The notes: a model not told the origin generated them from the sequence alone. A stretch of DNA of 64,000 nt from Phycisphaerae bacterium (GCA_039683615.1 JBDKRA010000022.1:197146-261145); one strand, 5' to 3'; shown: positions 5,903 to 59,572, counted from the stretch's first letter. A program made the numbers and translations.

Positions 5903-5950
5903 GTAGCATGGGCATCTTGCCCATGAGTCACACGGGCGTCTCGCCCGTGC
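5903..5950. repeat. Pair of GC palindromes CATGGGCATCTTGCCCATG and CACGGGCGTCTCGCCCGTG (family F)
   Basis: Two adjacent 8-bp-stem hairpins with tct loops sit between ispA and dxs. The related GTAGCACGGGCG elements are at 26876-26936, 28112-28245 and 49222-49322. Confidence 0.45.
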
Positions 5951-11026: not shown

Positions 11027-13046
11027 AGCGAAGGGCCTCCACCGGCTGCATGCGGGCCGCCCGGACCGCCGGAATCATCGCCCCGATCAGCCCCGCCACC
11101 AGGGCGCCGGCGATGATCCACACCGCCGCGGACCAGTCCACCTCGTTGGGGATCTTCTCGAACATGAACGTCTCGGGGTCCCAGACGCGGAAACCCACTG
11201 TCGCATCCGTGAAGTCCTGGATGGCATTGATATTCCTGACGAAGATCCATCCCAGCACCGATCCCAGCACCGACCCGATCAGCCCGATGATCGCCCCGTA
11301 GCCGAAGAAGATGCCCGCCACGCCCCAGGACGAACCGCCCACCGCCTTGACGATCCCGATGTCGGCGGTCTTCTGCACCACGATCACGTACAGGATCACC
11401 ACGATCAGCAGCACCGACACGCCCCACATGATGCTGTTCATCACGATCGCCAGCGTTCGCTGCTGCTGGATGGGCCCGATCACGTGCCGCTGCAACTGCC
11501 GCCACGTCACGATCGAGACCTCGCCCGAGGCCCGGTGGCTGGGCTCGGCCGCGAAGGTCTTCCAGAGTTCCTGAATCTTGCCCGAGACATCCTGGAGAAT
11601 CTCTTCTTCCGAATACCGGTGCGGGAGCCACTGCCCCTTGGCGCCTTCCAGGAGCCGCGCCGAGGGCACCCACTTGTCGATGTCCACCTTGAAATGGATC
11701 TGCGAGCAGCGGGCCGGCACGACCACCCGCTTGGAGTCGTCTGCGTCGTACTCGGCGGCCATGTTGTTCATGGCCTGCAGCGTCTCAAAGGGAATGTAGA
11801 CGAACTTCGAGTCGATGCTGGAGACGTCGCTGTGATTGTCGTCGATGACGGTGAAGTCGGCCATCTGCACCTGCGGCATGGACGTGCCGGTCGCCTTGCC
11901 CAGCGGCAGCATCAGCAGCGAGATCTTGTTGCCGGGCACGACGTGGCGGATCGTCTCGCCTTTGGGCGAACGGAATGACAGCCCGCCGATGCCCAGGCCC
12001 AGAACGACGCGGTGCGCCGCATCGCCCATCAGGTACTCCTGCGTCAGGGCCAGGCAGCGGTCCAGGGCGTCGACGGTCTCGACGGTGGGCAGGTCCTGGC
12101 GAGCCCGCTTGAGCTCGTCTTTGAGACCGGGCAGCGCCGCCTCGACCGACTTGTTCGTGCGCAGAAAATCCTCGGCCGCCAGCGTCTCCAGCAGCACCAA
12201 GGCCTGACTCAGCGCGGCGGTGGTCGATGCGGATGGGCCTTTGTCCTGGGCCTGTGCCAGCACGTTGCGGAGGTCCGTCCACTGTTGGCGGTACTTCTGC
12301 GTGTTGAGGATGCATCGCTGAGCGCGGCGCCGGAAGACAAACGTCGTCTGGATCCGCTCGGCGATCGCCTGCGAGGCCAGGATGTCGCGCATCTGCGAGT
12401 CGGTCAGGTCGTCGGCCGTCTTCTGCGGCAGCGCGGCGAGCCAGGCCATATCGTCGTCGCCGACCGGCGGCGGCGAGTCCAGCAGCTTGTCCAGGCGCTG
12501 GCGCTGGATAGGCAGGAGCTTGTCCCGGTCGGTCTGCAGGGCGTAGACCTTGAGCGTCTCGCGCTGGCGGATCAAGAGCACCTGGTCATTGTCCTGCTTG
12601 ATCCTTTCCAGCAGCAGCTTTGCCGGCGGATCGAACGTGGGTCGCGGCACGCCGGCCTCGAAGTAGAGCCCCTGCTCGAAGTCGGACACGTCCACGCGCT
12701 GGGGCAGGCGGATGCCGGCGATCTGGATCGTCTGGCGAAAATCGGTGCCCGGCACCGGCAGGATGCCATACGCGAGAATGAAGGGCGAGCCGGCCTTGAC
12801 CTCGGGCACCTTCTTCGTCACCTCGGCGATGAACTCGTCGTAGTACGCCATGCCGGTGACGCCGCCGGACTCGACGACGACGTCGCCGAAAAGCCCCTTG
12901 GCCGCCCGCTCGATCTTCCACAGAAACCCGCTCATGACGCTGACGCTGACGAGCATCAAAAACACGCACGCCGACACGCCCAGCATCGCCAGGATCGCCA
13001 GGGCCTTGCTGCGCAGGTACGTCAGGAGTAGGTGGAGTTTGTACAT
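11019..13046 (-). CDS. FtsX-family ABC transporter permease (LolC/E or MacB-like) with a large periplasmic domain
   Basis: An N-terminal TM helix is followed by a periplasmic domain of about 470 aa and a C-terminal FtsX-type 3-TM bundle. It overlaps lolD by 8 nt. Confidence 0.8.
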   Translation of the reverse strand: MYKLHLLLTYLRSKALAILAMLGVSACVFLMLVSVSVMSGFLWKIERAAKGLFGDVVVESGGVTGMAYYDEFIAEVTKKVPEVKAGSPFILAYGILPVPGTDFRQTIQIAGIRLPQRVDVSDFEQGLYFEAGVPRPTFDPPAKLLLERIKQDNDQVLLIRQRETLKVYALQTDRDKLLPIQRQRLDKLLDSPPPVGDDDMAWLAALPQKTADDLTDSQMRDILASQAIAERIQTTFVFRRRAQRCILNTQKYRQQWTDLRNVLAQAQDKGPSASTTAALSQALVLLETLAAEDFLRTNKSVEAALPGLKDELKRARQDLPTVETVDALDRCLALTQEYLMGDAAHRVVLGLGIGGLSFRSPKGETIRHVVPGNKISLLMLPLGKATGTSMPQVQMADFTVIDDNHSDVSSIDSKFVYIPFETLQAMNNMAAEYDADDSKRVVVPARCSQIHFKVDIDKWVPSARLLEGAKGQWLPHRYSEEEILQDVSGKIQELWKTFAAEPSHRASGEVSIVTWRQLQRHVIGPIQQQRTLAIVMNSIMWGVSVLLIVVILYVIVVQKTADIGIVKAVGGSSWGVAGIFFGYGAIIGLIGSVLGSVLGWIFVRNINAIQDFTDATVGFRVWDPETFMFEKIPNEVDWSAAVWIIAGALVAGLIGAMIPAVRAARMQPVEALRYE

Positions 13047-13110: not shown

Positions 13111-13494
13111 TCAGTCGCCTGTCTTCTGCTTCTGAAGGTAGGTGATATATCCGTTGAGGAGCTTCATCGTCTCAGCAGCAACCTTGCGGATCTCGTCCAA
13201 GCTTGGCTTATCCGCATAATTCCGATCTTCGCTGGTATTGAGATCATCCACTATTTCACACACAGAGCCTCGAGAAGTTCGGCAGAACTTCGTGTTGTCT
13301 TGCCAGCTGTACCGTCCATGACCTTCGGCAATATTGTTTGTCACAGAAACAGCAGCTCTTCGCAGTTGCTGTGCCAAGCCGTATTTCTCACAGTCAGGCA
13401 ACCGTCCAGCCAACGCATAAGCTTTGCCCCGCAGTTCCCTCGCCTTCCTGTATACCGCCAAATCTTCAAACCCAAACGGGCTTCTCTCTTCCAT
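13111..13494 (-). CDS. Four-helix-bundle protein (23S rRNA intervening-sequence protein family)
   Basis: 127 aa with the family motifs LRRAAVSVTNNIAEGHGRYS and KFCRTSRGSVCE. Confidence 0.8.
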   Translation of the reverse strand: MEERSPFGFEDLAVYRKARELRGKAYALAGRLPDCEKYGLAQQLRRAAVSVTNNIAEGHGRYSWQDNTKFCRTSRGSVCEIVDDLNTSEDRNYADKPSLDEIRKVAAETMKLLNGYITYLQKQKTGD

Positions 13495-18818: not shown

Positions 18819-20215
18819 CAGCGGCCCTCCGCGGCGGCGTCGTCATCATGGCCGCCGCCGTACGACAGTTCGAGCGTGTCGTCGGGCCCGCGCAGAATCA
18901 CGCGCCGCGCCAGCACGATGAACGCCACGAGGATCGCGACGTAGATCGCGGTGTAGCCCGCCAGCGTCCAGGCGGCGTTGGCGGCCGAGATGTTCGAGAC
19001 GCCGTGCTCGGTGCGCATCACGTTGTAGATGACCCACGGCTGGCGGCCGACCTCGCGCACCGCCCACCCGAGGTCGGCGGCGATGAACCCCAGCGGGATC
19101 GACCACATCCACGCCCGCAGAAACCAGCGGCTTTGGGCGGCGTGCTCGGCGCTGAGCCGCCCACGGAACCATTTGACCAGCGACCAGAGCATCAGAGCGA
19201 ACATCGCCATGCCGATGAGCACCATCCCGCGCAGGGCATAGAACGGCAAGACGACGGGCGGGCGGTCCTGCGGCGGGAAGTCTTTCAGGCCCGTCACCTG
19301 CGTGTCCGGCTGGTGGTGTACCATCAGGCTCAGCCCCTGCGGGATGCGCACTTCCCACGCGTTGCGCTCGTGGTCGAGATCCGGCCAGGCCGCAATCGCC
19401 CACGACGCCCCGGTGCCCGGCGGGTTGGTCTGCCAGTGGGCCTCCATGGCCGCGGTCTTGGCGGGCTGGTGCTTGGCCACGCCGCGACCCGACAGGTCGC
19501 CCAGGTAGATCTGCAGCGGCGTAATAACCGCGGCCGCCAGCACCACGCCCTTGAGGGCCTTGAGGAACGCCTGGCTCTGGCGACCCTTGCTGACGAACCA
19601 GGCGCAGATACCGCCGATGAAGAACAGCGTCGTCGCCAGGCACGCGGCCAGCATGTGCGTGAACGAATAGAACCACGCGGGATTGAAGATGGCCGCGAAG
19701 TAGTCCACGGGGACCGCGCGGCCGTCGACCATCATCGTGCCCGCCGGCGTCTGCATCCACGCGTTGGCCGACATGATCCAGAACGCCGAGAGCGTCGAGC
19801 CGAAAGCGACCATGATCGTGGCGAAGATGTGCATCCCGCGCGAGACGCGGTTCCATCCGAAGACCATGATGCCCAGGAAGGCGGCCTCAAGCATGAAGGC
19901 CATGCTGGCCTCGAAGCCCAGGATGTTTCCGAAGAACCCGCCGCCCGCCCGCGAGAACAGCGCCCAGTTGGTGCCGAACTGGAACTCCAGCGGCAGCCCG
20001 CTGGCCACCCCCACGCCAAACCCCAGCAGGAACAGCTTGCCCCAGAAATGCCGGTGGCGGTAGTACGCGTTTCTGCCCGTGATCAGCCAGGCGGCCTCGA
20101 GGGCGACCAGCCACCATGCCAGGCCGATCGTCAGCAACGGCCAGAACATGTGGAATGACGTCGTAATGGCGAACTGGATCCGCGACAGCGTCAGTGGATT
20201 GTAGAAGGCGTCCAT
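18818..20215 (-). CDS. cydA: Cytochrome bd ubiquinol oxidase subunit I
   Basis: IQFAITTSFHMFWPLLTIGLA and the Q-loop region are present. It overlaps cydB by 1 nt. Confidence 0.95.
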   Translation of the reverse strand: MDAFYNPLTLSRIQFAITTSFHMFWPLLTIGLAWWLVALEAAWLITGRNAYYRHRHFWGKLFLLGFGVGVASGLPLEFQFGTNWALFSRAGGGFFGNILGFEASMAFMLEAAFLGIMVFGWNRVSRGMHIFATIMVAFGSTLSAFWIMSANAWMQTPAGTMMVDGRAVPVDYFAAIFNPAWFYSFTHMLAACLATTLFFIGGICAWFVSKGRQSQAFLKALKGVVLAAAVITPLQIYLGDLSGRGVAKHQPAKTAAMEAHWQTNPPGTGASWAIAAWPDLDHERNAWEVRIPQGLSLMVHHQPDTQVTGLKDFPPQDRPPVVLPFYALRGMVLIGMAMFALMLWSLVKWFRGRLSAEHAAQSRWFLRAWMWSIPLGFIAADLGWAVREVGRQPWVIYNVMRTEHGVSNISAANAAWTLAGYTAIYVAILVAFIVLARRVILRGPDDTLELSYGGGHDDDAAAEGR

Positions 20216-20340
20216 GTTGGTTGGCTGGATAACTGGTTAATTGGTTCACGGGTTGATTGGTCGACTGGTTGAAAGGGCTGGCATTGAGCTGATACCCAGT
20301 CAACCGGTTAGCGAGTTAACGAGTCAACCAATTAACGACT
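20216..20340. repeat. GTTAAC/GGTTGAC-unit hairpin (family A, copy 3)
   Basis: tggttaattggttcacgggttgattggtcgactggttga is mirrored by cccagtcaaccggttagcgagttaacgagtcaaccaattaacga. It sits between the divergent cydA and esterase genes. Confidence 0.6.
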
Positions 20341-20390
20341 TCTCGCCTCCTCACGGGTTATAGTATGCGGTAAGACTGTAAGGAGCCATC

Positions 20391-21632
20391 ATGAATCGTA
20401 CTTTTGCATTGGCAATAGCAGGCGCCTGCTTGTGCTGCGCCGCGGAGGCCGCAATGGCCGACACCCTTAAGGCCGCCGCGACCGGCGCATGGACAAGCCC
20501 ATCGCTCAACAAAGACCTGGCCACCACGCTCTACGCCCCTGCCGACGACGCCCCGCAGCGGTCGCGCGCCGGGCGGCCGGGAATCTTCTACCTCAAGAAC
20601 CTTGCCTCACAGCGCGCCGGCACCGAGAGCGATGAGTCGATCATCGCCGACTTGCTCAAGGACGGCTACCTCGTGCTGGTCATCGACTACGCCAAGGACC
20701 CCAAGGCCGTCGCGCCGTATATGGACCTGGACATCCGCGCCATGCGGTCGAGCATGGGCGGGAGCAAGACCAAGCCCGGCATCTTCGGCCCCCAGCGCGT
20801 CGACGGCGACCACACCTACGTGCTGGCCGAGGGCTTCCGCCTCGTGCGCGACATCCTCTACTACGGCAGCGAAAAGGACGGCTATCGCCTCGACATCCGC
20901 TACCCCTCCAAGCCCAAGACGCCCGCGCCGGCGCTGATCCTCAACCCCTGCGACAACAAGAACCGCATGGGCAACTGGGTCATCACCACGTACAACGAAG
21001 TGATCGTCGAGTCGGCCATGACGCGCGGATACGCAGCCGTGCAGATCGACAACCCCGTCAAGTTCTACAAGGGCCGCGACCCCATGCCGGAGGTCGCCAT
21101 CATTATCAAGGCCGCCATCCGCACCGTGCGGGCCAAGGGCAAAGATCTGGGCCTGTCCGGCAAGGTCGGCCTGATGGGCTTCTCGCGCGGCAGCGGACAG
21201 TCCGGCCTGGCCGGGCTCTCAAGCGGCATGAAGGAACTTGAGCAGGGCCCGAACCTCGACCAGTCCTCGCGCCCCGACGCGCTGCTTCTTCACGCCGGGC
21301 GTATGGACCACCTGCTGCTGCTCAAGACCGATCCCAAGTTCGGCAGCTCGTACGGCGACCAGTTCGGCGACCCGGTGACCAACCGAAAGAAGTGGGAAGA
21401 GGGCAGCGCCGCGTTCTACGTGACCAAGGACGACCCGCCGGTGTTCCTGTCGGTGGGCGGCAATGATGAATACCGCGTCGCGCAGATCAAGCGAATGGAC
21501 GAAGCCCTGACCGCGGCCGGCGTCGAGCACACGCTGGCGATCACTCCCGGAATGGGTCACCGCGTCACCGGCGACGTCACGATCTTGGGCCAGATCTACG
21601 ACTTCTTCGACAAGCATTTGAAGAGCAAGTAG
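20391..21632 (+). CDS. Secreted alpha/beta-hydrolase (esterase/lipase, possibly a carbohydrate esterase)
   Basis: An N-terminal signal peptide, a nucleophile elbow GFSRG (GxSxG), and a C-terminal His context GMGHRV. The length is 413 aa. Confidence 0.65.
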   Translation: MNRTFALAIAGACLCCAAEAAMADTLKAAATGAWTSPSLNKDLATTLYAPADDAPQRSRAGRPGIFYLKNLASQRAGTESDESIIADLLKDGYLVLVIDYAKDPKAVAPYMDLDIRAMRSSMGGSKTKPGIFGPQRVDGDHTYVLAEGFRLVRDILYYGSEKDGYRLDIRYPSKPKTPAPALILNPCDNKNRMGNWVITTYNEVIVESAMTRGYAAVQIDNPVKFYKGRDPMPEVAIIIKAAIRTVRAKGKDLGLSGKVGLMGFSRGSGQSGLAGLSSGMKELEQGPNLDQSSRPDALLLHAGRMDHLLLLKTDPKFGSSYGDQFGDPVTNRKKWEEGSAAFYVTKDDPPVFLSVGGNDEYRVAQIKRMDEALTAAGVEHTLAITPGMGHRVTGDVTILGQIYDFFDKHLKSK

Positions 21633-21637
21633 GCGGC

Positions 21638-24600
21638 CTACTTCTGCTCGGCCTTGCCGAAGATCTTCTCGATCAGCACGTAAAACAGGGGCACGAACAC
21701 GACCACCAGCACGGTGGCTGACACCATGCCGCCCAACACGCCGGTGCCGATGGCCTTCTGGGCGCCCGCTCCGGCCCCGGTGGCAATCGCCAGGGGAACC
21801 ACGCCGAAGCCAAAGGCCAGCGAGGTCATCAAGATCGGCCGCAATCGCAACTTGGCCGCCTCCAGCGTCGCCTCCAGCAGCCCCACGCCTTCCTGGACCT
21901 TTCCCTTGGCGAACTGCACGATCAGAATGGCGTTCTTGGTCGTCAGCCCCAGCGTCGTCAGCAGGGCGATCTGGAAGTACACGTCGTTGGCCAGCCCGCG
22001 CTGTCCGGAGGCGATCACGCCGCCGATGACGCCCAGCGGCAGGGCCAGCAGAATCGCCACGGGGATCGTCCAGCTCTCGTACAGTGCGGCCAGGCACAGG
22101 AAGATGACGAGGATCGAGAAGGCGTACAGCAGCGGCGCCTGAGCGCCGCCCTGGCGCTCCTGGTACGACAGCCCCGTCCAGTCGTAGCCCACGCCCGTCG
22201 GCAGCTCGCCGACGAACTTTTCCATCGCGGCCATCGCTTCGCCGGAACTGCGTCCCGGCGCCGGTTCGCCCTGGATGTTGAACGACGGAAAGCCGTTGAA
22301 CCGCTCCAACTTGGGCGAGCCCGACGTCCAGTGCGACGAGGCGAACGAGGAGAAAGGAACCATCTGCCCGTTGCCGTTGCGGACATAGAGCTTGTCCAGG
22401 TCCTGCGGGAGCATGCGGTACGGGGCGTCGGCTTGGGCATAGACGCGTTTAACGCGCCCGCCCTGGACAAAGTCGTTGACGTACGCGCTGCCAAAGGAGG
22501 CGGAGATCGTGTTGTGGATCGACGAGATCGGCACCCCCATCGCCCCGGCCTTATCCCAGTCGACGTCCACGCGATACTCCGGGACATCCTCCAGACCGTT
22601 GGGGCGCACCCGCACCAGCCGCGGATCCTTGGCGGCCTTGCCCAGCAGTTGATTGCGAATGCCCATCATCGCGCTGTGCCCCAGTCCGCCGCGGTCGAGA
22701 AGCTGAAAGTCAAAGCCGGTGGCGTTACCCAGTTCCATCACCGACGGCGGAGGGAACACCAGGACCGTGCCTTCGCGAATCCGCGACAGCGCCATCATGG
22801 TGCGTCCGGCGACGGCCTTGGCCCGCAGCTCCTCACGGGAGCGCTGGTTCCAGTCCTTGAGTTTGACGAAGAGCATCCCGCTGCTCTGGGACCGACCCGA
22901 GAAGCTCATGCCGCAAATCGTCAGGCACGACTCGACGCTTTCCTTTTCCTTCTCACGGAGATACTGGGAGACCTGGTCGGCGAAACCCTGCGTCTGCTCG
23001 ATGGTCGAGCCGGTGGGCATGATGATCAGGGCCATCAGGATGCCCTGGTCCTCGTCGGGCAGGTACGAGCTGGGCATCTGTAGAAACAGCACGCCCAGCG
23101 CCGCGACGATCAGCACGTACATGGCCACAAAGCGGAACTTCCGCCGCAAGGCGTGGCTCACCAATCGCAGGTATACGTCTCGCAGACCGAAGAAGCCGCG
23201 GTCGAACCAGCGAAAGAACGGGCGCAGCAGCCAGAAGCCTCCCTCGGCCGGTTCATGCCCCTTGGCCACGGGCTTGAGGATCGCCGCGCACAGCACCGGC
23301 GTCAGCACCAGGGCGACGACGACCGAGAGAAGCATCGCGGCGGCAACCGTGACGGAGAATTGCCGGTAGATCACGCCGGTCGAGCCGGGGAAGAACGCCA
23401 TCGGAAAGAACACCGCCGAAAGGATCAGGCCGATGCCGATCAAGGCGCTGGTGATCTGGTCCATGGACTTGGCGGTGGCCTCGCGGGGCGAGAGCCCCTC
23501 CTCGCTCATGATACGTTCGACGTTCTCGACGACGACGATGGCGTCGTCGACCAGCAGGCCGATCGCCAGCACCATCGCGAACATGGTGAGCATGTTGATG
23601 GAGTAGCCCAGCATCGCCAGCACGCCGAAGGTCCCCAGCAGCACCACCGGAACGGCGATGGTCGGGATCAAGGTCGCGCGGACGTTGCCCATGAACAGGT
23701 ACATGACCAGGAACACCAGCACGATGGCTTCCAGCAGCGTCTTGACGACTTCCTCGATCGCCACCTTCGTGAACGGCGTGCTGTCATGCGGATAGAAGAC
23801 CTTCAGGCCATGGGGAAAATAACGGCTCATTTCCTCCATCTTGTCCCGCACGTTCTGGGCCGTCTCCAGCGCGTTGGCGCCCGAGGCCTGGCGAATCGCC
23901 AGCGCCGCCACAGGGAAGCCGTTGTAACGCGCCTGCATGTCGTAATTCTCGGTGCCCAGTTCCGTCCGGCCGACATCCTTGACGCGCACGACCGAGCCGT
24001 CGGGGTTGGTGCGGATGGGTATCGAGGCGAACTCCTCGGGCGTCTTGAGCAGGTTTTGCACCACGATCGACACGTTGAGGCGCTGCCCGTCAACGGCGGG
24101 CGTGCCGCCGAACTGACCGGCCGAAACCTCGACGTTGTACGCCCGCAGCGCGGCCGTCACGTCGGCGACCGTCAGGCGATAGCTCGTCAGTTTGTCGGGG
24201 TTCAGCCAGACGCGCATGGCGTATTGCGAACTGAAGCTTTCCACTTCACCCACGCCCGGAACCCGCGCCAGCACCTTCTCCAGGTTCGACATCGCGTAGT
24301 CCTGGATGTCAGCGATGGTCATGCTCCCGTCTTCGCAGGTCAGGCCCACGATGAGCAGATAGTTCCTCGTCGATTTGCCAACCTTGATGCCCACGCGCTG
24401 AACCGTCTCGGGCAGGCTCGTCATCGCCAGTTGCAGCTTGTTCTGAACCTGCGCCCAGGCCAGGTCCGGGTCCGTCCCCGGCGTGAAGGTCAGCTCGATG
24501 CGCGAGCTGCCGGCCGAGTCACTGGTGGCCGACATGTACAACATCTTGTCGAAGCCCGTCATCTTCTGCTCGATGATCTGCGTAACGCTGTTCTCGACCG

Positions 24601-24769
24601 TCTCGGCCGAGGCGCCGGGATACATCGCCGAAATGGCGATCGACGGCGGAGCGATGGGCGGATATTGCGAAATCGGCAGGCTATGAATGGCCAGGCCGCC
24701 CAGCACCATCGTCACGATGGCGATCACCCAGGCGAACACCGGGCGTTGCAGAAAGAATCTGGACAGCAT
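21638..24769 (-). CDS. RND multidrug efflux permease (AcrB/HAE1 family)
   Basis: 1043 aa with 12 TM helices and two large periplasmic loops. The N-terminus MLSRFFLQRPVFAWVIAIV is characteristic. Confidence 0.95.
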   Translation of the reverse strand: MLSRFFLQRPVFAWVIAIVTMVLGGLAIHSLPISQYPPIAPPSIAISAMYPGASAETVENSVTQIIEQKMTGFDKMLYMSATSDSAGSSRIELTFTPGTDPDLAWAQVQNKLQLAMTSLPETVQRVGIKVGKSTRNYLLIVGLTCEDGSMTIADIQDYAMSNLEKVLARVPGVGEVESFSSQYAMRVWLNPDKLTSYRLTVADVTAALRAYNVEVSAGQFGGTPAVDGQRLNVSIVVQNLLKTPEEFASIPIRTNPDGSVVRVKDVGRTELGTENYDMQARYNGFPVAALAIRQASGANALETAQNVRDKMEEMSRYFPHGLKVFYPHDSTPFTKVAIEEVVKTLLEAIVLVFLVMYLFMGNVRATLIPTIAVPVVLLGTFGVLAMLGYSINMLTMFAMVLAIGLLVDDAIVVVENVERIMSEEGLSPREATAKSMDQITSALIGIGLILSAVFFPMAFFPGSTGVIYRQFSVTVAAAMLLSVVVALVLTPVLCAAILKPVAKGHEPAEGGFWLLRPFFRWFDRGFFGLRDVYLRLVSHALRRKFRFVAMYVLIVAALGVLFLQMPSSYLPDEDQGILMALIIMPTGSTIEQTQGFADQVSQYLREKEKESVESCLTICGMSFSGRSQSSGMLFVKLKDWNQRSREELRAKAVAGRTMMALSRIREGTVLVFPPPSVMELGNATGFDFQLLDRGGLGHSAMMGIRNQLLGKAAKDPRLVRVRPNGLEDVPEYRVDVDWDKAGAMGVPISSIHNTISASFGSAYVNDFVQGGRVKRVYAQADAPYRMLPQDLDKLYVRNGNGQMVPFSSFASSHWTSGSPKLERFNGFPSFNIQGEPAPGRSSGEAMAAMEKFVGELPTGVGYDWTGLSYQERQGGAQAPLLYAFSILVIFLCLAALYESWTIPVAILLALPLGVIGGVIASGQRGLANDVYFQIALLTTLGLTTKNAILIVQFAKGKVQEGVGLLEATLEAAKLRLRPILMTSLAFGFGVVPLAIATGAGAGAQKAIGTGVLGGMVSATVLVVVFVPLFYVLIEKIFGKAEQK

Positions 24770-24781
24770 CTTGAGTCTCCG

Positions 24782-26080
24782 TCACTTTGAGCCAGGGGTG
24801 GCACGAGGAGCCTGGGCGAGTTTCATCGGGGTGTGCTTGACCAGAGAGCCCGGGCGCACCTTCTGGCCGCCTTCAACGATCAATTTCTCGCCTTCCACCA
24901 GTCCAGCGCTGACAAACCACTGGCTGCCGATGGCGCGATCGAGCGTCAGGACCCGTGCGGCGGCCTTGCCGTCGGCGTCGACGATCATCGCCATGGGCGT
25001 GCCGCGCGGATCGCGCGTCACGGCCTGCTGGGGAATCAGGATCGCCTTGCGGTTGACGCCCTCGACGATCGACGCTCGGACGAACATGCCCGGCAGCAGC
25101 GTCGCGTTGGGGTTGGGAAAGACCGCCCGCAAAATGACCGATCCGGTCGTCGGATCGACCGTCACGTCGCGGAACTGAAGAGTCCCTTCCAGCGGACAGG
25201 GACTGCCGTCTTCCATCGACAGCTTGACCTTCTCGCCGCCGGCGCCGTTGTGGTTGAGCGAACCGTCCTTCAGCCGCTGACGCAGCCGAAGCAACTCGGC
25301 CGTCGACTGGGGAACATCCACGTAGATCGGGTCCAGTTGCTGGATCGTCGCCAGCGCCAGCGGTTGATACGCCGTCACCAAGGCGCCGTCGTTGACGGTC
25401 GATTTGCCGATGCGCCCCGACAGCGGAGCGGTGATCTTCGTATACGCCAAGTTGATGTTGGCCGTGGCCAGGGCGGCCTGGGCCTGCTGCACCGACGCCT
25501 GGGCACCCGCGATAGTCTGGCGGCTGCTCTCGACCTGCGCGTCGGCCGCTTCGAGATTGGCTTTGGCGACATTGACCTTTGTCTTGGCGTCGTCCAGTTC
25601 CGACGCCGTCGCGGTCCTGGTGGCAAAGAGCTGCTCCGTGCGTTTGAGGTCGACCTGGGCCTGATCTAAGGTGGCTTTCTCCCGCGTCACACCCGCGACA
25701 CAGGCCGCCAAAGCAGCCTGAGCCTTGGCGACGCCCTTGACGGCCACCTCCAGATTGGCCGCGGCGTTTTCCTGCGCAGCTTTGAACGTGGCCGCGTCGA
25801 TCTCATAGAGCACGTCGCCAGCCTTGACGTCTGAGCCTTCAGTGAACAACCGCTTCTGCACGATGCCATTGACCTGGGGCCGGACTTCGGCCACGCGGAA
25901 GGATGCCGTGCGGCCGGGAAGGTCCGTCGTCAACACGACCTCCTGCGGCGTCACTGTCACAATGCCCACTTCCGGCACCGGCGGAGGCGGCGCGGCTTGC
26001 TGTTGCTTCTGGCAGCCCTGCAACATTGCCAGGCACACCAGTGCGGCAGCGAGATGGGAATTCGTTTTGACGATACTCAT
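24782..26080 (-). CDS. RND efflux periplasmic adaptor (AcrA/HlyD-type membrane fusion lipoprotein)
   Basis: A lipobox LAMLQGC, a coiled-coil hairpin, and beta-barrel and MP domains. Confidence 0.9.
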   Translation of the reverse strand: MSIVKTNSHLAAALVCLAMLQGCQKQQQAAPPPPVPEVGIVTVTPQEVVLTTDLPGRTASFRVAEVRPQVNGIVQKRLFTEGSDVKAGDVLYEIDAATFKAAQENAAANLEVAVKGVAKAQAALAACVAGVTREKATLDQAQVDLKRTEQLFATRTATASELDDAKTKVNVAKANLEAADAQVESSRQTIAGAQASVQQAQAALATANINLAYTKITAPLSGRIGKSTVNDGALVTAYQPLALATIQQLDPIYVDVPQSTAELLRLRQRLKDGSLNHNGAGGEKVKLSMEDGSPCPLEGTLQFRDVTVDPTTGSVILRAVFPNPNATLLPGMFVRASIVEGVNRKAILIPQQAVTRDPRGTPMAMIVDADGKAAARVLTLDRAIGSQWFVSAGLVEGEKLIVEGGQKVRPGSLVKHTPMKLAQAPRATPGSK

Positions 26081-26619
26081 GCGTTTACTCCAGTTCTGCG
26101 CTCAGGCGGAGCTTTCTGCTTCTTCTGCAATTCCCGGACGAGGGCGTCCAGGACCTTCTGGTATGAATTCAGCATCGCCGTCCGCTCCCTCTGGGAAAGG
26201 ACGTTCACGACGCTGCAGATCCTGCGATATCGCTCCGGCAGGTGGCGGCTGATGAAGCTGCGGCCCGAGGGCGTCAGCGAGACCGCGACCATCCGCCGGT
26301 CGCCGGGGTGCGGCGTGCGGACCGTGTGACCGAGCTTCTCCAGCGAGTCCAGGGCACTGGTCATAGCCGAGCGCGTCAGGGACACTTCCTCCGACAGCGC
26401 GGCCGGGGTCGACGTTCCGTCTTCGCTGTGGAAGAGCAACTCCATGATCTCGATCTGCCTGGCCGTCAACCCCCATCCTGCCAGATCGTTTTCGATCACC
26501 TGCTCTACCTGGTGATGAAGACGCGCAATTTCCAGCCCCTCCCGAAGGGTCGTTTGCTCGATCCCTTCCAGTCGGCCGGCAAACTGCATGATTCCGTCGA
26601 TCGTGTTCTTACTGGGCAT
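26077..26619 (-). CDS. MarR-family transcriptional regulator
   Basis: A winged-HTH region LTARQIEIMELL...LSEEVSLTRSAMTSALDSLEKLGHTVRTPHPGDRR. The start is placed at MPSKNT (26619), with the alternative MHGIV at 26664. It overlaps the adaptor gene by 4 nt. Confidence 0.85.
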   Translation of the reverse strand: MPSKNTIDGIMQFAGRLEGIEQTTLREGLEIARLHHQVEQVIENDLAGWGLTARQIEIMELLFHSEDGTSTPAALSEEVSLTRSAMTSALDSLEKLGHTVRTPHPGDRRMVAVSLTPSGRSFISRHLPERYRRICSVVNVLSQRERTAMLNSYQKVLDALVRELQKKQKAPPERRTGVNA

Positions 26620-26762
26620 GAGAGTCTCCGCCAGGCTGGTTCGACCAGATACAATACCATGCAATATAATATGGCGTCGAACTATATGGAAACATAATCT
26701 CCTGTTCCTTTGGTTCGTTGATGCATTGCCATGGGCAAGCTTGCGTTACTCCAGGGCGGCAC

Positions 26763-26875
26763 GGCGGCACGCACGCTGGCGATCACTGCCGGAATGGGTC
26801 ACCGCGTCACCGGCAACGTCACGATCCTGGGCCGGATCTACGACTTCTTCGACAAGCACCTGAAGGTGAAATGAC
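26763..26875 (+). pseudogene. Duplicated 3' fragment (last ~37 codons) of the esterase gene that ends at 21632
   Basis: About 95 nt are approximately 93 % identical to 21527-21632, encoding ...TLAITAGMGHRVTGNVTILGRIYDFFDKHLKVK* against ...TLAITPGMGHRVTGDVTILGQIYDFFDKHLKSK*. Confidence 0.65.
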
Positions 26876-26936
26876 GTAGCACGGGCGTCCCGCCCGTATT
26901 TCCCGTGCCCCGCCGCGGGCGAGACGGCCGTGCTAT
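26876..26936. repeat. GTAGCACGGGCGTCCCGCCCGT palindromic element (family F)
   Basis: gtagcacgggcgtcccgcccgt...ggccgtgctatgg lies downstream of the esterase fragment. The same 12-mer ends recur at 28112, 28223, 49225 and 49305. Confidence 0.5.
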
Positions 26937-28114
26937 GGTTTCTGCACCTTGAGCTTTACGCGGTTGGCGGTGATCTCAACGATGGCCAGTTTGACGGCTT
27001 TGACTTCCGTGAGGCGATCGGCCAGGGTTTCGTTCGAGTAGCGATATTCCACGTCGATGTTGGCGACGCTTTCGGTGATCTCCCGCAGGCGAAGGGCCTG
27101 CACGCCGCGCAGCGTCGAGGCCTCGGTCTTGAACGTCTTCCAGGTCTCGAAGTCCATCCCTGAAACGCTGATCGCCACGGTGCGAGAGACGTTGGCCCGC
27201 TTGCGCCACGCTTCGACGACGGCCGCCAGAAGCTGCGCGGCGCAGTCGTCGCCGAGCTTGGCCAGGGCCTTATCCTCGCCGCCGCCGCGCTGCAGCGTGG
27301 TGGTCGTGACGGGGCCGAAGGTCCTGCTGGCCAGCACTCGCGCCGAGTCGGTCTGGATCACCCGCACGTTGAGCGTGGCGGTGTACTGGTAGAGTGTCTG
27401 GCCGGACACATCGAGGCGTTTGCCGTACTTGGCGGTCGCCCGGCCGGTGACGACCACGTCGGCGTTGAACCGCGCCCCCAGCGAGGCCACCTCGGTCATG
27501 TCGTCCTTGATGGCCGCCAGCAGCACGTCTCGCTTGGAGACGCTGGCGGCGGTGTTCTTGTCCATGATGGTGATGCCCTTGGACAGAAAGAAATCCTCGA
27601 TCTTGCTCTGAATAGTGCCGCTGTCATTTTCCCGGTAGGTGGGACCCTCCGTGGTCTGGTGAACCGACTCGGCGATGGCCACGATCACGCGAGGATTATT
27701 CTCCTGGTGAATCGTGTGGATGGTCGAGGCCCAATCCTCCTCGAACTTCTGCGTCGAGACGCGGGCCCGCACCCGGGCGGTCGTCACGCCGTCTTCGATG
27801 CTCACTTTGACGACCTTGTGCTCCTTGACGTAGCCCACGGCGTTGGCGATGACCTTGTCATAGACAGCCTTGTAGTCTTCGCTCTTGGACTGGCTGGTCA
27901 GGAAGACGCCGCAGGCTTCTTCGACGGCCGTGCGCAGGGCCTGCGCGACAGCCTCGTCGCGGGCCTTGTCGTCGGCCCCGCTGGCGCGGCCGGTGGCATC
28001 GACCCATTTGTCAACGGGACGGGCGGCGATCGGCTGCGCGACGGCCGCTGACGAAATCGCAACAAGAACAGCTCCAATCTGAATGAGCGTTGTCATGCTT
28101 CGAGAACGATTCAT
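26933..28114 (-). CDS. Secreted three-domain protein: LPP20/FlgP-like N-domain, CsgG-like middle domain, and a C-terminal beta domain (paralogue A)
   Basis: The start is placed at MNRSRSMTTLIQIGAVLVAISSAAVAQ (signal peptide, ATG 28114). LPP20-like spacing: ATGRASGADDKARDEAVAQALRTAVEEACG...VKVSIEDGVTTARV. CsgG-like: PRVIVAIAES...FNADVVVTGRA...LNVRVIQTDSARVL. Confidence 0.6.
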   Translation of the reverse strand: MNRSRSMTTLIQIGAVLVAISSAAVAQPIAARPVDKWVDATGRASGADDKARDEAVAQALRTAVEEACGVFLTSQSKSEDYKAVYDKVIANAVGYVKEHKVVKVSIEDGVTTARVRARVSTQKFEEDWASTIHTIHQENNPRVIVAIAESVHQTTEGPTYRENDSGTIQSKIEDFFLSKGITIMDKNTAASVSKRDVLLAAIKDDMTEVASLGARFNADVVVTGRATAKYGKRLDVSGQTLYQYTATLNVRVIQTDSARVLASRTFGPVTTTTLQRGGGEDKALAKLGDDCAAQLLAAVVEAWRKRANVSRTVAISVSGMDFETWKTFKTEASTLRGVQALRLREITESVANIDVEYRYSNETLADRLTEVKAVKLAIVEITANRVKLKVQKP

Positions 28115-28245
28115 CGGCTGTCTCCCAAGTAGCACGACCCTCTTGCCCGTGAGCACCACGGCCATCCCGAGCGTGGCCTTTGCCATGCACGGGCGAGACA
28201 CCCGTGCTACTCATGGCCGAGACGGCCATGCTACGGAAAAACTAC
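28112..28245. repeat. GTAGCACG...CCCGTGCTAC element containing the nested palindromes CACGGGCGAGACACCCGTG and CATGGCCGAGACGGCCATG (family F)
   Basis: It lies between the paralogue A start and the paralogue B stop, and overlaps the start region of paralogue A. Confidence 0.5.
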
Positions 28246-29375
28246 GGCGCTTTGAATTTCGCTTTGATCACGTTGGCCGAGACGTCGGAGATATCCAGTT
28301 CCGGCATGGCGTCGGCGAGTTTCTCAGCCAGCTTTTCGGCGATCAGGTCCGATTGGAGCGAGCACTCGACGACCTGATTGTGGAAGGCGGCCGTGACGTC
28401 CTTGACATTCTTGACGGTCTTGAGCTTGGCCTTGATCTGCGTGTACTGCTTGAAGGTGACGCCCTCGACGTGCAGCTGCACCTCGCCGCGTCCGGCCAGG
28501 GCGTCCTGCCAGAATTGGAGCACGTCTTCGACGACCTTGGGGGCGACGATCTGGGCCTGGGCGTCCAGGGCCTTGGCGGCGGCGCTGCGCCAAACGCGGT
28601 CGACCCCGCGCGTCGACGGACCGGGCTGGCTGGCCAAAAGCTGCCCGGTGTCGCTGCGAAAACAGCGGATGTTCGATTCAGCCTGGAACGGGAACAACTG
28701 CAGCCCGCCGACGACACTCGTGGGCCCGGGCGTGGCGTTGGCCGTGCCGCTGATGAAGATCTGTGCGCCAAATCGTTTCGCCACCGCTTGCAGGCGGGCG
28801 GGACTGTCCTCGGCGGCCGCGGCGGTCAGGTCCTTCTTGTCGATCTCCTTGAGCTGCTCCTTGTCCACCAGGACAAATCCGCTCTTGAGCAGCAGGTTCT
28901 CGATTCGCGTCTGGACGGTCGAGTCGTCCTGCACCCGCTCGCCGATGCGCTCGCGGACAAAGACCATGATCTTGGGCCGCCCCACTTGCGCCAGCAGGTT
29001 GGTCACCACGCCCCAGGTGTCCTCGATGCCTTTGATCGACACGACGGCCGATATCTTCACCTGCCACGAGCCGTCGGGCAGTTCGCCCTTGGAGAGGATC
29101 TTCTTGCTCTGCAGGAACCCGGCGCTGCGCGACAGCACGGTGTCGCGCACGAGGGCGAAGTCCTTCATCTCCGAGTGCGAGCTGATGTATTGCCCCGCGC
29201 CATGCTCGACGGCTTTGCGCATGGCGTCGGCCAGTGCTTCCTCTTCGCTGGCTCCACCGCCGGTGACGGTCACTTCCACCAGGTTGTCGCCCTTGGGCGT
29301 GACGGTCTGGGCCGGCGCCGAAGCGGTCCAGAGCAGGGCAATGCCGATCACCGCAAGAATCCGTGTGAGTCTCAT
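28242..29375 (-). CDS. Secreted three-domain LPP20-like/CsgG-like protein (paralogue B)
   Basis: Signal peptide MRLTRILAVIGIALLWTASAPAQT. LPP20-like: VTGGGASEEEALADAMRKAVEHGAGQYISS. CsgG-like: IMVFVRERIG...LLKSGFVLVDKEQL...FGAQIFISGTA. The domain order matches the 26933-28114 gene. Confidence 0.6.
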   Translation of the reverse strand: MRLTRILAVIGIALLWTASAPAQTVTPKGDNLVEVTVTGGGASEEEALADAMRKAVEHGAGQYISSHSEMKDFALVRDTVLSRSAGFLQSKKILSKGELPDGSWQVKISAVVSIKGIEDTWGVVTNLLAQVGRPKIMVFVRERIGERVQDDSTVQTRIENLLLKSGFVLVDKEQLKEIDKKDLTAAAAEDSPARLQAVAKRFGAQIFISGTANATPGPTSVVGGLQLFPFQAESNIRCFRSDTGQLLASQPGPSTRGVDRVWRSAAAKALDAQAQIVAPKVVEDVLQFWQDALAGRGEVQLHVEGVTFKQYTQIKAKLKTVKNVKDVTAAFHNQVVECSLQSDLIAEKLAEKLADAMPELDISDVSANVIKAKFKAP

Positions 29376-59484: not shown

Positions 59485-59572
59485 CGGAGAGGGCGGGATT
59501 CGAACCCGCGGTACCCTTTTGGGGCACACAGCATTTCCAGTGCTGCACATTCGGCCGCTCTGTCACCTCTCC
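59485..59572 (-). tRNA. tRNA-Ser (anticodon GGA), type II with a long variable arm; CCA is not encoded
   Basis: The reverse complement folds into a cloverleaf: acceptor GGAGAGG/CCTCTCC, D-stem ACA/TGT, anticodon stem CAGCA/TGCTG with loop CTGGAAA, a 20-nt variable arm, and T-arm GCGGG-TTCGAAT-CCCGC. Confidence 0.9.

Follow-up and report, generated by a model that had tools for sequence, protein, structure and literature searches.

How did an efflux operon come to lie between two in-frame copies of the 3′ end of an esterase gene in a bacterium of the Phycisphaerae? The question arises in a stretch of 64,000 nt (GCA_039683615.1, JBDKRA010000022.1:197146-261145), hereafter the window. A repeat search of positions 20000-28500 returned one outstanding direct repeat, pairing 21530-21623 with 26772-26865 (94 nt, 94% identity, spacing 5242). 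Carried on to the stop codons, the repeat comprises 21530-21632 (copy 1) and 26772-26874 (copy 2, plus strand), 103 nt with 12 differences (88% identity). Both copies are in the esterase frame, copy 1 ending in HLKSK-TAG and copy 2 in HLKVK-TGA. The edge of homology at 26772 is sharp, and the 150 nt on its 5′ side had no significant similarity to the esterase gene in a shuffle test. When the copy-1 region was compared with the whole 64-kb window by blastn, copy 2 was the single second copy (E = 4e-37); the remaining matches were 30 nt or shorter with E of at least 0.29. An earlier note on this DNA had described a direct repeat of the esterase 3′ end around the pump block, with an intact stop and the same frame in the second copy; repeat search, blastn and the in-frame copies confirm this description. 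Its coordinates were 1–3 nt off at each end, while its figure of 93% identity holds for the 94-nt core.

Copy 1 closes an intact gene for an alpha/beta-hydrolase, called the esterase here (20391-21632, plus strand, 413 amino acids; Pfam BD-FAE, 1.4e-14, and Peptidase_S9, 2.2e-6), for which NCBI places the start at 20454, giving 392 amino acids. Its product is 100% identical to protein P0001 of a Planctomycetaceae metagenome-assembled genome (MAG). Copy 2 falls inside an ORF of 47 amino acids (26731-26874) that is annotated as a hypothetical protein. The pump and regulator genes lie exactly between the copies, as had been claimed, and Pfam assigns all three. On the minus strand, these are marR, a MarR-family regulator and the first gene of the operon (26077-26619; MarR and MarR_2); a gene for a periplasmic adaptor, or MFP (24782-26080; HlyD_D23, CusB_dom_1 and HlyD_3); and acrB, for an RND permease of the AcrB/HAE1 type (21638-24769; ACR_tran, full length at model positions 2-1020 of 1021, 1198 bits). 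The stop codons of the esterase gene and acrB are separated by 5 nt, and the start of marR lies 152 nt from copy 2.

With AcrAB/HAE1 RND operons under a MarR-family repressor, the present operon has in common its full-length permease (ACR_tran), its MFP adaptor and a MarR gene upstream, arranged as in homologous operons. It differs from these in its truncated AcrB C-terminal tail and in the absence of an outer-membrane factor gene at the locus. AcrB is cut short right after the conserved LIEKIFGK, continuing with AEQK and a stop, and most homologues have 15–20 residues more at this end. No outer-membrane factor (OEP/TolC) gene was found in 21632-26772, although a TolC elsewhere in the genome is possible; in two homologous operons (L024 and L025), OEP genes directly follow acrB. 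The MarR protein is 60% identical to that of the L025 operon. The right end of the insert (26620-26771) is the marR regulatory region, which contains divergent promoter-like hexamers and an inverted repeat, GTTCGAC...GTCGAAC, at 26639-26656 and 26665-26682, and has no homology to the esterase gene. This operator-like motif has a weak match upstream of marR in L025, which 16 of 300 shuffles equalled in score. Given the AcrB tail cut after LIEKIFGK, the missing OEP gene, the mere 152 nt beyond marR and the sharp boundary at 26772, the insert looks like a fragment of an operon and not like an element with its own ends.

The genes that flank the insert have, unlike the pump, 88–93% identical orthologues in the MAG of a sister species (L002, GCA_039680605.1), which is fully syntenic at ~87% nucleotide identity and served as the sole outgroup genome. 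Among the matches listed, the nearest AcrB relative outside the organism itself is 82% identical, and others, from Nitrospirae, Deltaproteobacteria, Lentisphaerae, Kiritimatiellota and other groups, are 75–79% identical. None of the listed matches above 82% comes from the sister species; the only such AcrB is the organism's own. On these relationships, the pump is foreign to the genus as sampled; no donor of the cassette was found. Comparing GC3 and codon usage of the cassette with those of its flanks, a check proposed earlier, yielded almost no signal. GC3 is 0.80 in the MFP gene and 0.79 in marR against 0.85–0.93 in the flanking genes, and the GC content and codon usage of acrB could not be distinguished from those of the host. 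Because acrB is host-like in composition, composition lends no independent support to a foreign origin.

The sister species retains the locus without the pump. At 83–91% nucleotide identity to the window, its gene order is cydB-cydA-esterase, followed after 83 nt by the same downstream gene. This gene (26933-28096, minus strand, 387 amino acids, weak FlgT_N similarity), which in the window lies beyond copy 2, is thus the immediate neighbour of the esterase gene in the sister, and its product is 91% identical to that of L002 11328-12428. Between copy 2 and this gene lies a REP-like palindromic element (26876-26936; predicted fold of −40.7 kcal/mol) that aligns to the sequence 3′ of the esterase gene in L002 and is common to the window and the sister species. 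A REP-like hairpin directly follows the esterase gene in both L002 and L003, and in L002 the downstream gene comes next. The element at 26876-26936 is probably the original esterase terminator; related copies occur at 5903-5948 and 28129-28210. The esterase is 91% identical to its sister orthologue (P0062) over the full length and 93% identical over a 380-amino-acid BLAST alignment, and beyond these two organisms the next homologue in a search of 5.8 billion proteins is 66% identical. The proposal of the earlier note that the cassette had inserted into or next to an esterase gene, with partial duplication of the target, is supported by this empty site. The two observations that it had named as speaking against insertion were not made: the repeat is not the 3′ end of a multi-copy esterase family, and the cassette is missing from this position in the sister.

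Judged by orthology to the sister, it is copy 2, not copy 1, that represents the displaced original end of the esterase gene, because its TGA stop, its last nucleotides and the hairpin downstream of it correspond to the end of the sister's gene. Copy 2 and the sister orthologue agree at 14 of their last 16 positions, stop included, and their downstream flanks agree at 56 of 61, apart from a single indel of 24 nt. The 5′ part of the esterase gene and the cydA flank are orthologous to the sister on the other side of the insert. In the 87-nt core (21530-21616 in copy 1), the copies differ from each other at 4 positions, whereas either copy differs from L002 at 12–14, and the two have in common 12 states that differ from L002. 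As the copies are closer to each other than to the sister, the sequences date the duplication to after the species split. Within the core, three changes are specific to copy 2, all in nt 1-63 and all non-synonymous (P>A, D>N and Q>R); copy 1 deviates from the sister at one of the four differences, and this change is synonymous. Such a pattern is expected of a pseudogene and a gene that were identical at the start. Site-by-site polarity draws on 12 informative positions and one outgroup genome, and gene conversion between the copies could have wiped the history in the 87-nt core.

The anomaly of copy 1 lies in its last 16 nt, T TTG AAG AGC AAG TAG (21617-21632, plus strand), which complete the esterase ORF. 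Of the 16 positions of this tail, 8 differ from copy 2 and 8 from the sister, whereas copy 2 and the sister disagree at no more than 2; the clustering of the differences is significant (Fisher p = 2e-5). The codons around it include the rare CAT (17%) and TTG (7%). The tail forms part of a palindrome that spans the convergent ends of the esterase gene and acrB (21602-21664), with an inner stem GAGCAAGTAGG-CGG-CCTACTT(CT)GCTC and an outer stem in which the FFDK codons of the esterase pair with the IFGK codons of acrB. RNA folding gave −24.3 kcal/mol for the plus strand (z = −1.7) and −27.7 kcal/mol for the minus strand (z = −2.4). Within this hairpin the copy-1 tail pairs with the end of acrB, and the copy-1-specific differences sit in the 3′ arm.

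We consider it reasonably probable that these features record a lineage-specific and probably recombinase-independent insertion of an operon, with duplication of the target, within the final 100 nt of the esterase gene after the split from the sister species. A 5.16-kb piece of a foreign marR-MFP-RND operon (~21617-26771) would have entered the resident gene at two junctions 87 nt apart, ordered so that the stretch between them was duplicated. The left junction would lie at codon His-409, 16–18 nt before the stop, and the right junction 103 nt before the stop. The left copy would then have received a 16-nt replacement tail that closes the ORF as HLKSK-stop, pairs with the end of acrB and keeps the esterase intact. 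The right copy would have kept the original stop, terminator hairpin and downstream neighbour and, no longer part of a gene, would now be decaying as a pseudogene fragment. Illegitimate or short-homology joining of a linear operon fragment may have sufficed without a recombinase, either by template switching at a fork or by repair that bridged two sister chromosomes, and the site may have been guided by a 24-nt block identical in copy 1, copy 2 and the sister, ATCTACGACTTCTTCGACAAGCA, together with a CAYYTGAAG patch. We infer the direction of gain, the mechanism of joining, the origin of the 16-nt tail and the excisability of the operon from these comparisons. That the tail still encodes LKSK-stop, close to the ancestral LK(V/G)K-stop, counts against an insertion of this kind; an origin of the tail in the terminator of the cassette would need a coincidence that we estimate at ~1–3%, assuming that both genes end in AAG-TAG and that the junction lies at the CAYYTGAAG patch.

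Displacement of this kind has precedents. [quoted passage not shown] 2017, PMC5361080; Jackson et al. 2009, as cited there). There, too, DNA anchored in a conserved gene part brings a new end and cargo, and the old end is orphaned downstream, no recombinase being required; here copy 2, with its ancestral stop and flank, is such an orphan kept downstream of the cargo. In those loci the incoming tip has a different function, being a new toxin accompanied by its immunity gene, and recurrent rounds build up arrays; here there was one event, an efflux operon forms the cargo, and the new and the old end hardly differ. Homology-facilitated illegitimate recombination is described for natural transformation and conjugation (de Vries & Wackernagel 2002, Prudhomme et al. 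2002 and Meier & Wackernagel 2003, as cited in PMC5361080; also PMC3240628). The likeness extends to the lack of mobile-element enzymes and to the junctions: the left one, at or after the 24-nt block, is perhaps homologous or of short homology, and the right one, sharp and non-homologous at 26772, is clearly illegitimate. Described events of this type usually delete recipient DNA, whereas here 87 nt of it were duplicated, for which either a second copy of the template or a switch between templates would be required. That the outcome was a duplication and not, as is usual, a deletion counts against the insertion proposed above.

Alternatively, a donor may have supplied the copy-1 tail as a genuine esterase end; a route anchored in homology or borne by an element would then be favoured. 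For the former, the incoming DNA would already have had an esterase-like 3′ end beside acrB, from an esterase homologue convergent to the pump, and would have recombined in the conserved IYDFFDKH block; the copy-1 tail would be that of the donor esterase and the copies perhaps reciprocal hybrids. Variants are a single Campbell-type crossover of an excised circle, or a homologous left junction combined with an illegitimate right one. We regard such an acquisition as possible but unlikely. It would explain why the tail keeps the C-terminal residues of the family with changes of mostly synonymous type, and why tail and acrB end form a common hairpin, as if they had co-evolved. Moreover, the match to L002 switches across the 24-nt block, from copy 1 at positions 17, 44 and 63 to copy 2 at 7 of the 8 sites after 87, as expected for a crossover inside this invariant block. 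Yet position 56 breaks the hybrid pattern, and the three copy-2-specific changes, all being non-synonymous, fit decay better than a functional donor allele. The donor esterase would also need ~95% identity over 63–87 nt yet 50% difference over the last 16 nt, and the pump adjoins none of the other esterase-homologue loci recovered (L002-L004 and L006-L022).

Integration of an element into the esterase 3′ end by a site-specific recombinase, with a surrogate end supplied, attL/attR remnants left behind and the integrase later deleted or acting in trans, is in our view improbable. Its model is icd-e14-icdC of Escherichia coli K-12, also used by phage 21, which has the same topology: a gene kept intact by a last part that comes from or with the insert, followed by the cargo and by the displaced original 3′ end as an in-frame pseudogene fragment. 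In MG1655, the e14 feature begins 165 nt short of the icd stop, and at its far end stands the displaced icdC, also 165 nt long and 92.7% identical, a repeat similar in length and identity to the present one. The 3′-end direct repeat and the empty site are found here as well, and the nearest relative of the cassette (that with the 82% identical AcrB) adjoins two Phage_integrase genes upstream of marR, which corresponds to the copy-2 side. However, e14 is a 15-kb prophage with intE and xisE, whereas the 5.2-kb insert has no recombinase gene. The earlier statement that no recombinase is present holds for what was scanned: a Pfam scan of the insert, of all called genes in 11638-34766 and of 20 other large ORFs of the window detected no integrase, transposase or recombinase domain. 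A deletion that removed the integrase would need to have ended precisely at the edge of homology, and the insert ends inside an operon, with its truncated AcrB tail and missing outer-membrane factor gene, not at the end of an element. Differences between icd and icdC are evenly spread and mostly synonymous; here they are concentrated in the final 16 nt, and the 87 nt before these look, unlike in e14, like a duplication of the resident sequence itself. A transposon or insertion sequence was also considered and rejected: no transposase domain was detected in the insert or in the called genes of 11638-34766, the repeat search found no inverted repeats pairing the two insert ends, and the duplication is 87–103 nt as opposed to 2–14 bp.

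The alternative raised in the earlier note, that copy 2 is the relic of a second esterase paralogue, is not supported, and we consider it very improbable. A second full-length esterase gene would once have stood on the marR side; the sister would have lost the pump by recombination between the paralogues, and the lineage of the window would have lost the 5′ 1.1 kb. Such a history, too, would leave the gene complete at one edge of the pump and reduced to its 3′ end at the other, and a deletion like that assumed for the sister can be mediated by direct repeats. It needs three events as opposed to one, however, and both pieces go back to a single ancestral gene, of which copy 2 and the flank downstream form one half, and the 5′ part of the esterase gene and the flank upstream the other. 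The copies, closer to each other than to the sister, place the duplication after the split, no esterase homology is left upstream of 26772, the protein search revealed no second close esterase, and no listed AcrB match with more than 82% identity stems from the sister. As to the assembly, two NCBI entries show this gene order, the 47-amino-acid ORF included, on a contig of 145 kb (proteins MCE5326692-96) and on one of 475 kb (MEN6664152-56), with accessions running consecutively in each, which makes an artefact unlikely. A chimeric join of strains at a repeat is conceivable, the window being taken from a MAG and a related species being present in the same batches of submissions, but can practically be dismissed. 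A mis-join would give one hybrid copy, whereas here there are two that have diverged and a junction at 26771/26772 that is unique and non-homologous; the five genes in a row, with the identical fragment ORF, recur on different contigs; and the copy-2 flank, only ~86% identical to the co-occurring species, was not borrowed from there.

The locus is therefore best read as a lineage-specific operon insertion with target duplication, a clean but ordinary scar of horizontal gene acquisition and an event of a known kind. Its 94%-identical direct repeats could in principle allow the operon to be deleted precisely by homologous recombination.

The 3′ end of the esterase gene, an α/β-hydrolase gene (20391–21632, plus strand; Pfam BD-FAE/Peptidase_S9), recurs beyond marR, and the space between the two copies is filled by an efflux operon. 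A repeat search over 20000–28500 returned one outstanding direct repeat, 21530–21623 and 26772–26865 (94 nt, 94% identity, 5242 nt apart). Extended to both stop codons, copy 1 (21530–21632) and copy 2 (26772–26874) align over 103 nt with 12 differences, and both keep the esterase frame, reading TLAITPGMGHRVTGDVTILGQIYDFFDKHLKSK and TLAITAGMGHRVTGNVTILGRIYDFFDKHLKVK, respectively, each followed by a stop. The esterase 3′-end repeat that the earlier note placed around the cassette was therefore recovered, at 103 nt and with both copies in frame. When copy 1 was searched against the whole 64-kb window by blastn, copy 2 was the sole match (E = 4e-37), the rest being noise. Between the copies lie, on the minus strand and assigned by Pfam, the genes for an AcrB-type RND permease (21638–24769), a membrane-fusion protein (MFP; 24782–26080) and MarR (26077–26619). 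The esterase and acrB genes are convergent, with a stop-to-stop gap of 5 nt. At the other end, the marR start lies 152 nt away from copy 2, which is enclosed in a 47-aa ORF with its ATG at 26731.

The esterase cluster contained a second member, P0062 (413 aa), from the sister-species MAG GCA_039680605.1. Its contig shares synteny with the window on either flank at 83–91% nucleotide identity: LpxI, an ABC/FtsX pair, a tRNA-synt_2 aminoacyl-tRNA synthetase, NIF3, an arabinofuranosidase, cydB and cydA lead up to the esterase, and two unknown genes, LPP20, two CsgG genes and a radical SAM gene lie past it. In the sister, the esterase stop (11242) is followed by 83 nt and then by the gene that in the window sits beyond copy 2, with no pump between the esterase and this downstream gene. 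A Logan contig of the same species agrees over its extent. Thus, a relative has the esterase locus without the pump, the empty site for which the earlier note had proposed a check. Elsewhere in the syntenic stretch, the window lineage carries, between the tRNA-synt_2 and FtsX genes, a gene of 127 aa whose product has a 23S_rRNA_IVP domain (PF05635; ~13111–13494, minus strand). The sister contig has no counterpart, its gap measuring 229 nt versus 563 nt in the window; this is a second small lineage-specific indel. The divergent cydA–esterase intergenic region holds a 50-nt imperfect inverted repeat (20228–20344; 70% complementary, 17-nt spacer, GGTT/AACC-rich), which may be a regulatory site.

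Copy 1, copy 2 and the sister locus were compared by three-way alignment. The last 16 nt of copy 2 (CAC CTG AAG GTG AAA TGA region) differ from the sister at 2/16 positions, and the 61-nt flank downstream, a REP-like hairpin, matches it at 56/61 positions, with a 24-nt indel in addition. In copy 1, the last 16 nt (T TTG AAG AGC AAG TAG) differ at 8/16, and acrB comes next. On the upstream side, the esterase gene body and the cydA flank are orthologous to the sister contig. Because the end of copy 2 with its flank and the gene body with the cydA flank are all orthologous to the sister, a single ancestral gene has been split: its 5′ 1139 nt now run into copy 1, and its own last 103 nt are copy 2. 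Four differences separate the copies upstream of the last 16 nt, three of them copy 2-specific and non-synonymous (P>A, D>N and Q>R) and one copy 1-specific and synonymous, as expected for a dead and a live copy that were identical at the start.

At the left end of the insert, AcrB terminates in a conserved LIEKIFGK followed by AEQK and the stop, most homologues being 15–20 residues longer. In two loci with homologous RND operons (L024 and L025, 79% identical), an OEP (outer-membrane factor) gene directly follows acrB; the window operon (21638–26619) has no outer-membrane factor gene. From the short AcrB tail and the OEP gene at this position in the homologous loci, the left end looks like a cut within an operon. 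At the right end, esterase homology breaks off abruptly at 26772; the preceding 150 nt have no significant similarity to the esterase gene. A residual homology seen by eye ('PVPLVR*CIAMGK..TAAR' ~ 'PVFLSVG..RVAQIK..TAAGVEH') was rejected by local alignment, as 97–387 of 500 dinucleotide shuffles scored as well. Upstream of marR (26639–26692), an inverted repeat GTTCGAC...GTCGAAC overlaps two divergent sigma-70-like promoter matches, and this motif has a weak match ahead of marR in L025; the 150-nt stretch is thus the regulatory region of the cassette. Since one of the two predicted promoters, at 26641–26670, is directed into the 47-aa ORF, the dead esterase end may give rise to a MarR-controlled transcript.

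The best AcrB match outside the organism itself is 82% identical (P0065, on ENA contig ERZ1426847), and there marR-MFP-acrB sits beside two Phage_integrase (tyrosine recombinase) genes, immediately upstream of marR. An OLD-like nuclease, DUF87 and an HTH/S24 repressor are also found near this cassette relative, a mobile-looking context. The next ~100 matches, at 75–79%, come from Nitrospirae, Deltaproteobacteria, Lentisphaerae, Kiritimatiellota and Pseudomonadota. The sister MAG has no close AcrB orthologue among the top matches, although other sister proteins are present in the database. The pump adjoins none of the other esterase-homologue loci recovered. A metagenome scan with the esterase alignment gave 16 loci (≤63% identity), 0 adjoining a pump; a genome-contig scan with the esterase gave a sole verrucomicrobial match, 27% identical; and the more distant homologues L004 and L006 have other gene neighbourhoods. 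A known plasmid cassette was rejected, the best AcrB match on plasmids being 60% (Azospirillum megaplasmids). GC content (~0.64) is flat across the cassette. The comparison of GC3 and codon usage with the flanks, also proposed earlier, gave little signal: GC3 is slightly low only in the MFP gene (0.80) and marR (0.79), and acrB (0.88) is host-like in codon usage. Compositional foreignness was dropped as evidence, its signal being too weak.

Very probably, then, a foreign efflux operon was inserted in this lineage into the esterase 3′ end, the gene end being rebuilt and the original end displaced. The empty site and the identity of copy 2 as the displaced end favour the earlier reading of an insertion with target duplication. 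Its statement that no recombinase is present held for the insert, for every called gene of 11638–34766 and for the other 20 large window ORFs scanned; those of the 20 with a Pfam match were housekeeping (MutS, IspA, Dxs, QueA, LpxI, MnmE, DnaG, a sigma factor and others). The insert ends carry no inverted repeats, and Rfam gave no match in the cassette region. Our preferred mechanism is a recombinase-independent event in which 87 nt of resident sequence were duplicated, because the insert is an operon fragment with a sharp illegitimate right junction, the core differences follow a pseudogene-versus-gene pattern and no recombinase was found. Both junctions would have fallen inside the esterase gene, in reversed order, thereby doubling the 87 nt.

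A homology-anchored variant, in which the donor DNA bore an esterase-like tail, is possible. Sliding divergence of the esterase gene against the sister showed no clear imported tract upstream of 21530. Also possible is an e14-like site-specific integration whose integrase was later lost. The icd-e14-icdC locus of E. coli K-12 has the same topology: the e14 feature begins 165 nt short of the icd stop, and the far-end icdC pseudogene is 92.7% identical to that stretch. Our locus lacks the recombinase that defines an integrative element, and it failed the tests for a transposon. It matches the '3′-end displacement' of rhs and T6SS loci, attributed to homology-facilitated illegitimate recombination (PMC5361080). 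We class the locus as an insertion scar in which a gene end was displaced, which is a known kind, and it reveals no new kind of system. We think it improbable that the pump operon is a recombinase-free yet mobile module, moving via the repeats and the 24-nt block. If it were, RecA would loop out a 5.2-kb circle with one hybrid esterase end via the 94%-identical repeats of this housekeeping gene's end, and one crossover within the motif-encoded 24-nt block could bring the circle back into any relative's esterase gene. The conserved protein motif would in that case play the part of a portable attachment site; the replacement tail and its hairpin would have evolved as a component keeping the target gene functional and terminating both convergent genes.

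The age of the duplication disfavours the other explanation in the earlier note, that copy 2 is the relic of a second esterase paralogue. Over the first 87 nt, the copies differ from each other at 4 positions and from the sister at 12 and 14, and 12 states are common to both copies and not in the sister. Being closer to each other than either is to the sister, the copies arose after the species split, with the caveat of gene conversion, and a paralogue relic is unlikely; under the same caveat, pump absence in the sister is most simply the primitive state.

The esterase matches a protein from a Planctomycetaceae MAG at 100% identity, and GCA_021371965.1 has a 23-kb stretch that matches window positions 11638–34766, likewise at 100%. 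Read from protein accession order, five genes are consecutive in two NCBI assemblies, MCE5326692-96 (145-kb contig) and MEN6664156-52 (475-kb contig), in the same order (47-aa ORF, marR, MFP gene, acrB and esterase), so the arrangement is reproduced by a second assembly. An assembly artefact is unlikely, as a mis-join at the repeat would give one hybrid copy, whereas two diverged copies and a unique junction were found. The same organism's AcrB (MEN6664153.1 and MCE5326695.1) is labelled Phycisphaerae bacterium and Planctomycetaceae bacterium, respectively, inconsistently between submissions.

The copy 1 tail is anomalous. The last 16 nt hold eight of the 12 differences between the copies (Fisher p = 2e-5), and 7 of these 8 are copy 1-specific. 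The tail encodes HLKSK and a stop, very similar to the ancestral HLK(V/G)K and stop, with rare codons (CAT 17%, TTG 7%). Together with the acrB end it makes up a palindrome, of which the tail is the 3′ arm; the inner stem is GAGCAAGTAGG-CGG-CCTACTT(CT)GCTC and the outer stem pairs esterase FFDK codons with acrB IFGK codons. The palindrome folds at −24.3 and −27.7 kcal/mol (z-scores −1.7 and −2.4); the hairpin lacks a T-run and was not called by a consensus terminator scan. The tail may be the cassette's own terminator arm, joined at a CAYYTGAAG microhomology, a true esterase tail from the donor or the product of later remodelling. A quasi-palindrome template switch is a minor possibility, since the arms differ by a 2-nt indel and a single templated event would not yield the tail sequence. 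The exact string CATTTGAAGAGCAAGTAGGCGGCCTACTT bears on the tail's origin.

REP-like palindromic intergenic elements occur at 5903–5948, 26876–26936 and 28129–28210 with the motif GTAGCACGGGCGTC(T/C)CGCCCGT, which has 6 matches versus 0.67 expected by chance, often as inverted pairs. The element after copy 2 is common to the sister species, with a 24-nt unit indel between them. They probably serve this planctomycete clade as terminators or REP elements. The only Rfam match in the window is a single tRNA gene (59485–59572, minus strand).

The locus offers a well-resolved natural case of an efflux operon entering a core chromosomal region without visible mobile-element machinery, with occupied and empty sites both in hand, the original gene end surviving as a dated relic, and repair of the target gene within the same event as the insertion. 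Given the flat GC content and host-like acrB codon usage, composition-based island detection would miss this acquisition. The direct repeats predict precise loss of the pump, making its presence or absence among strains testable.
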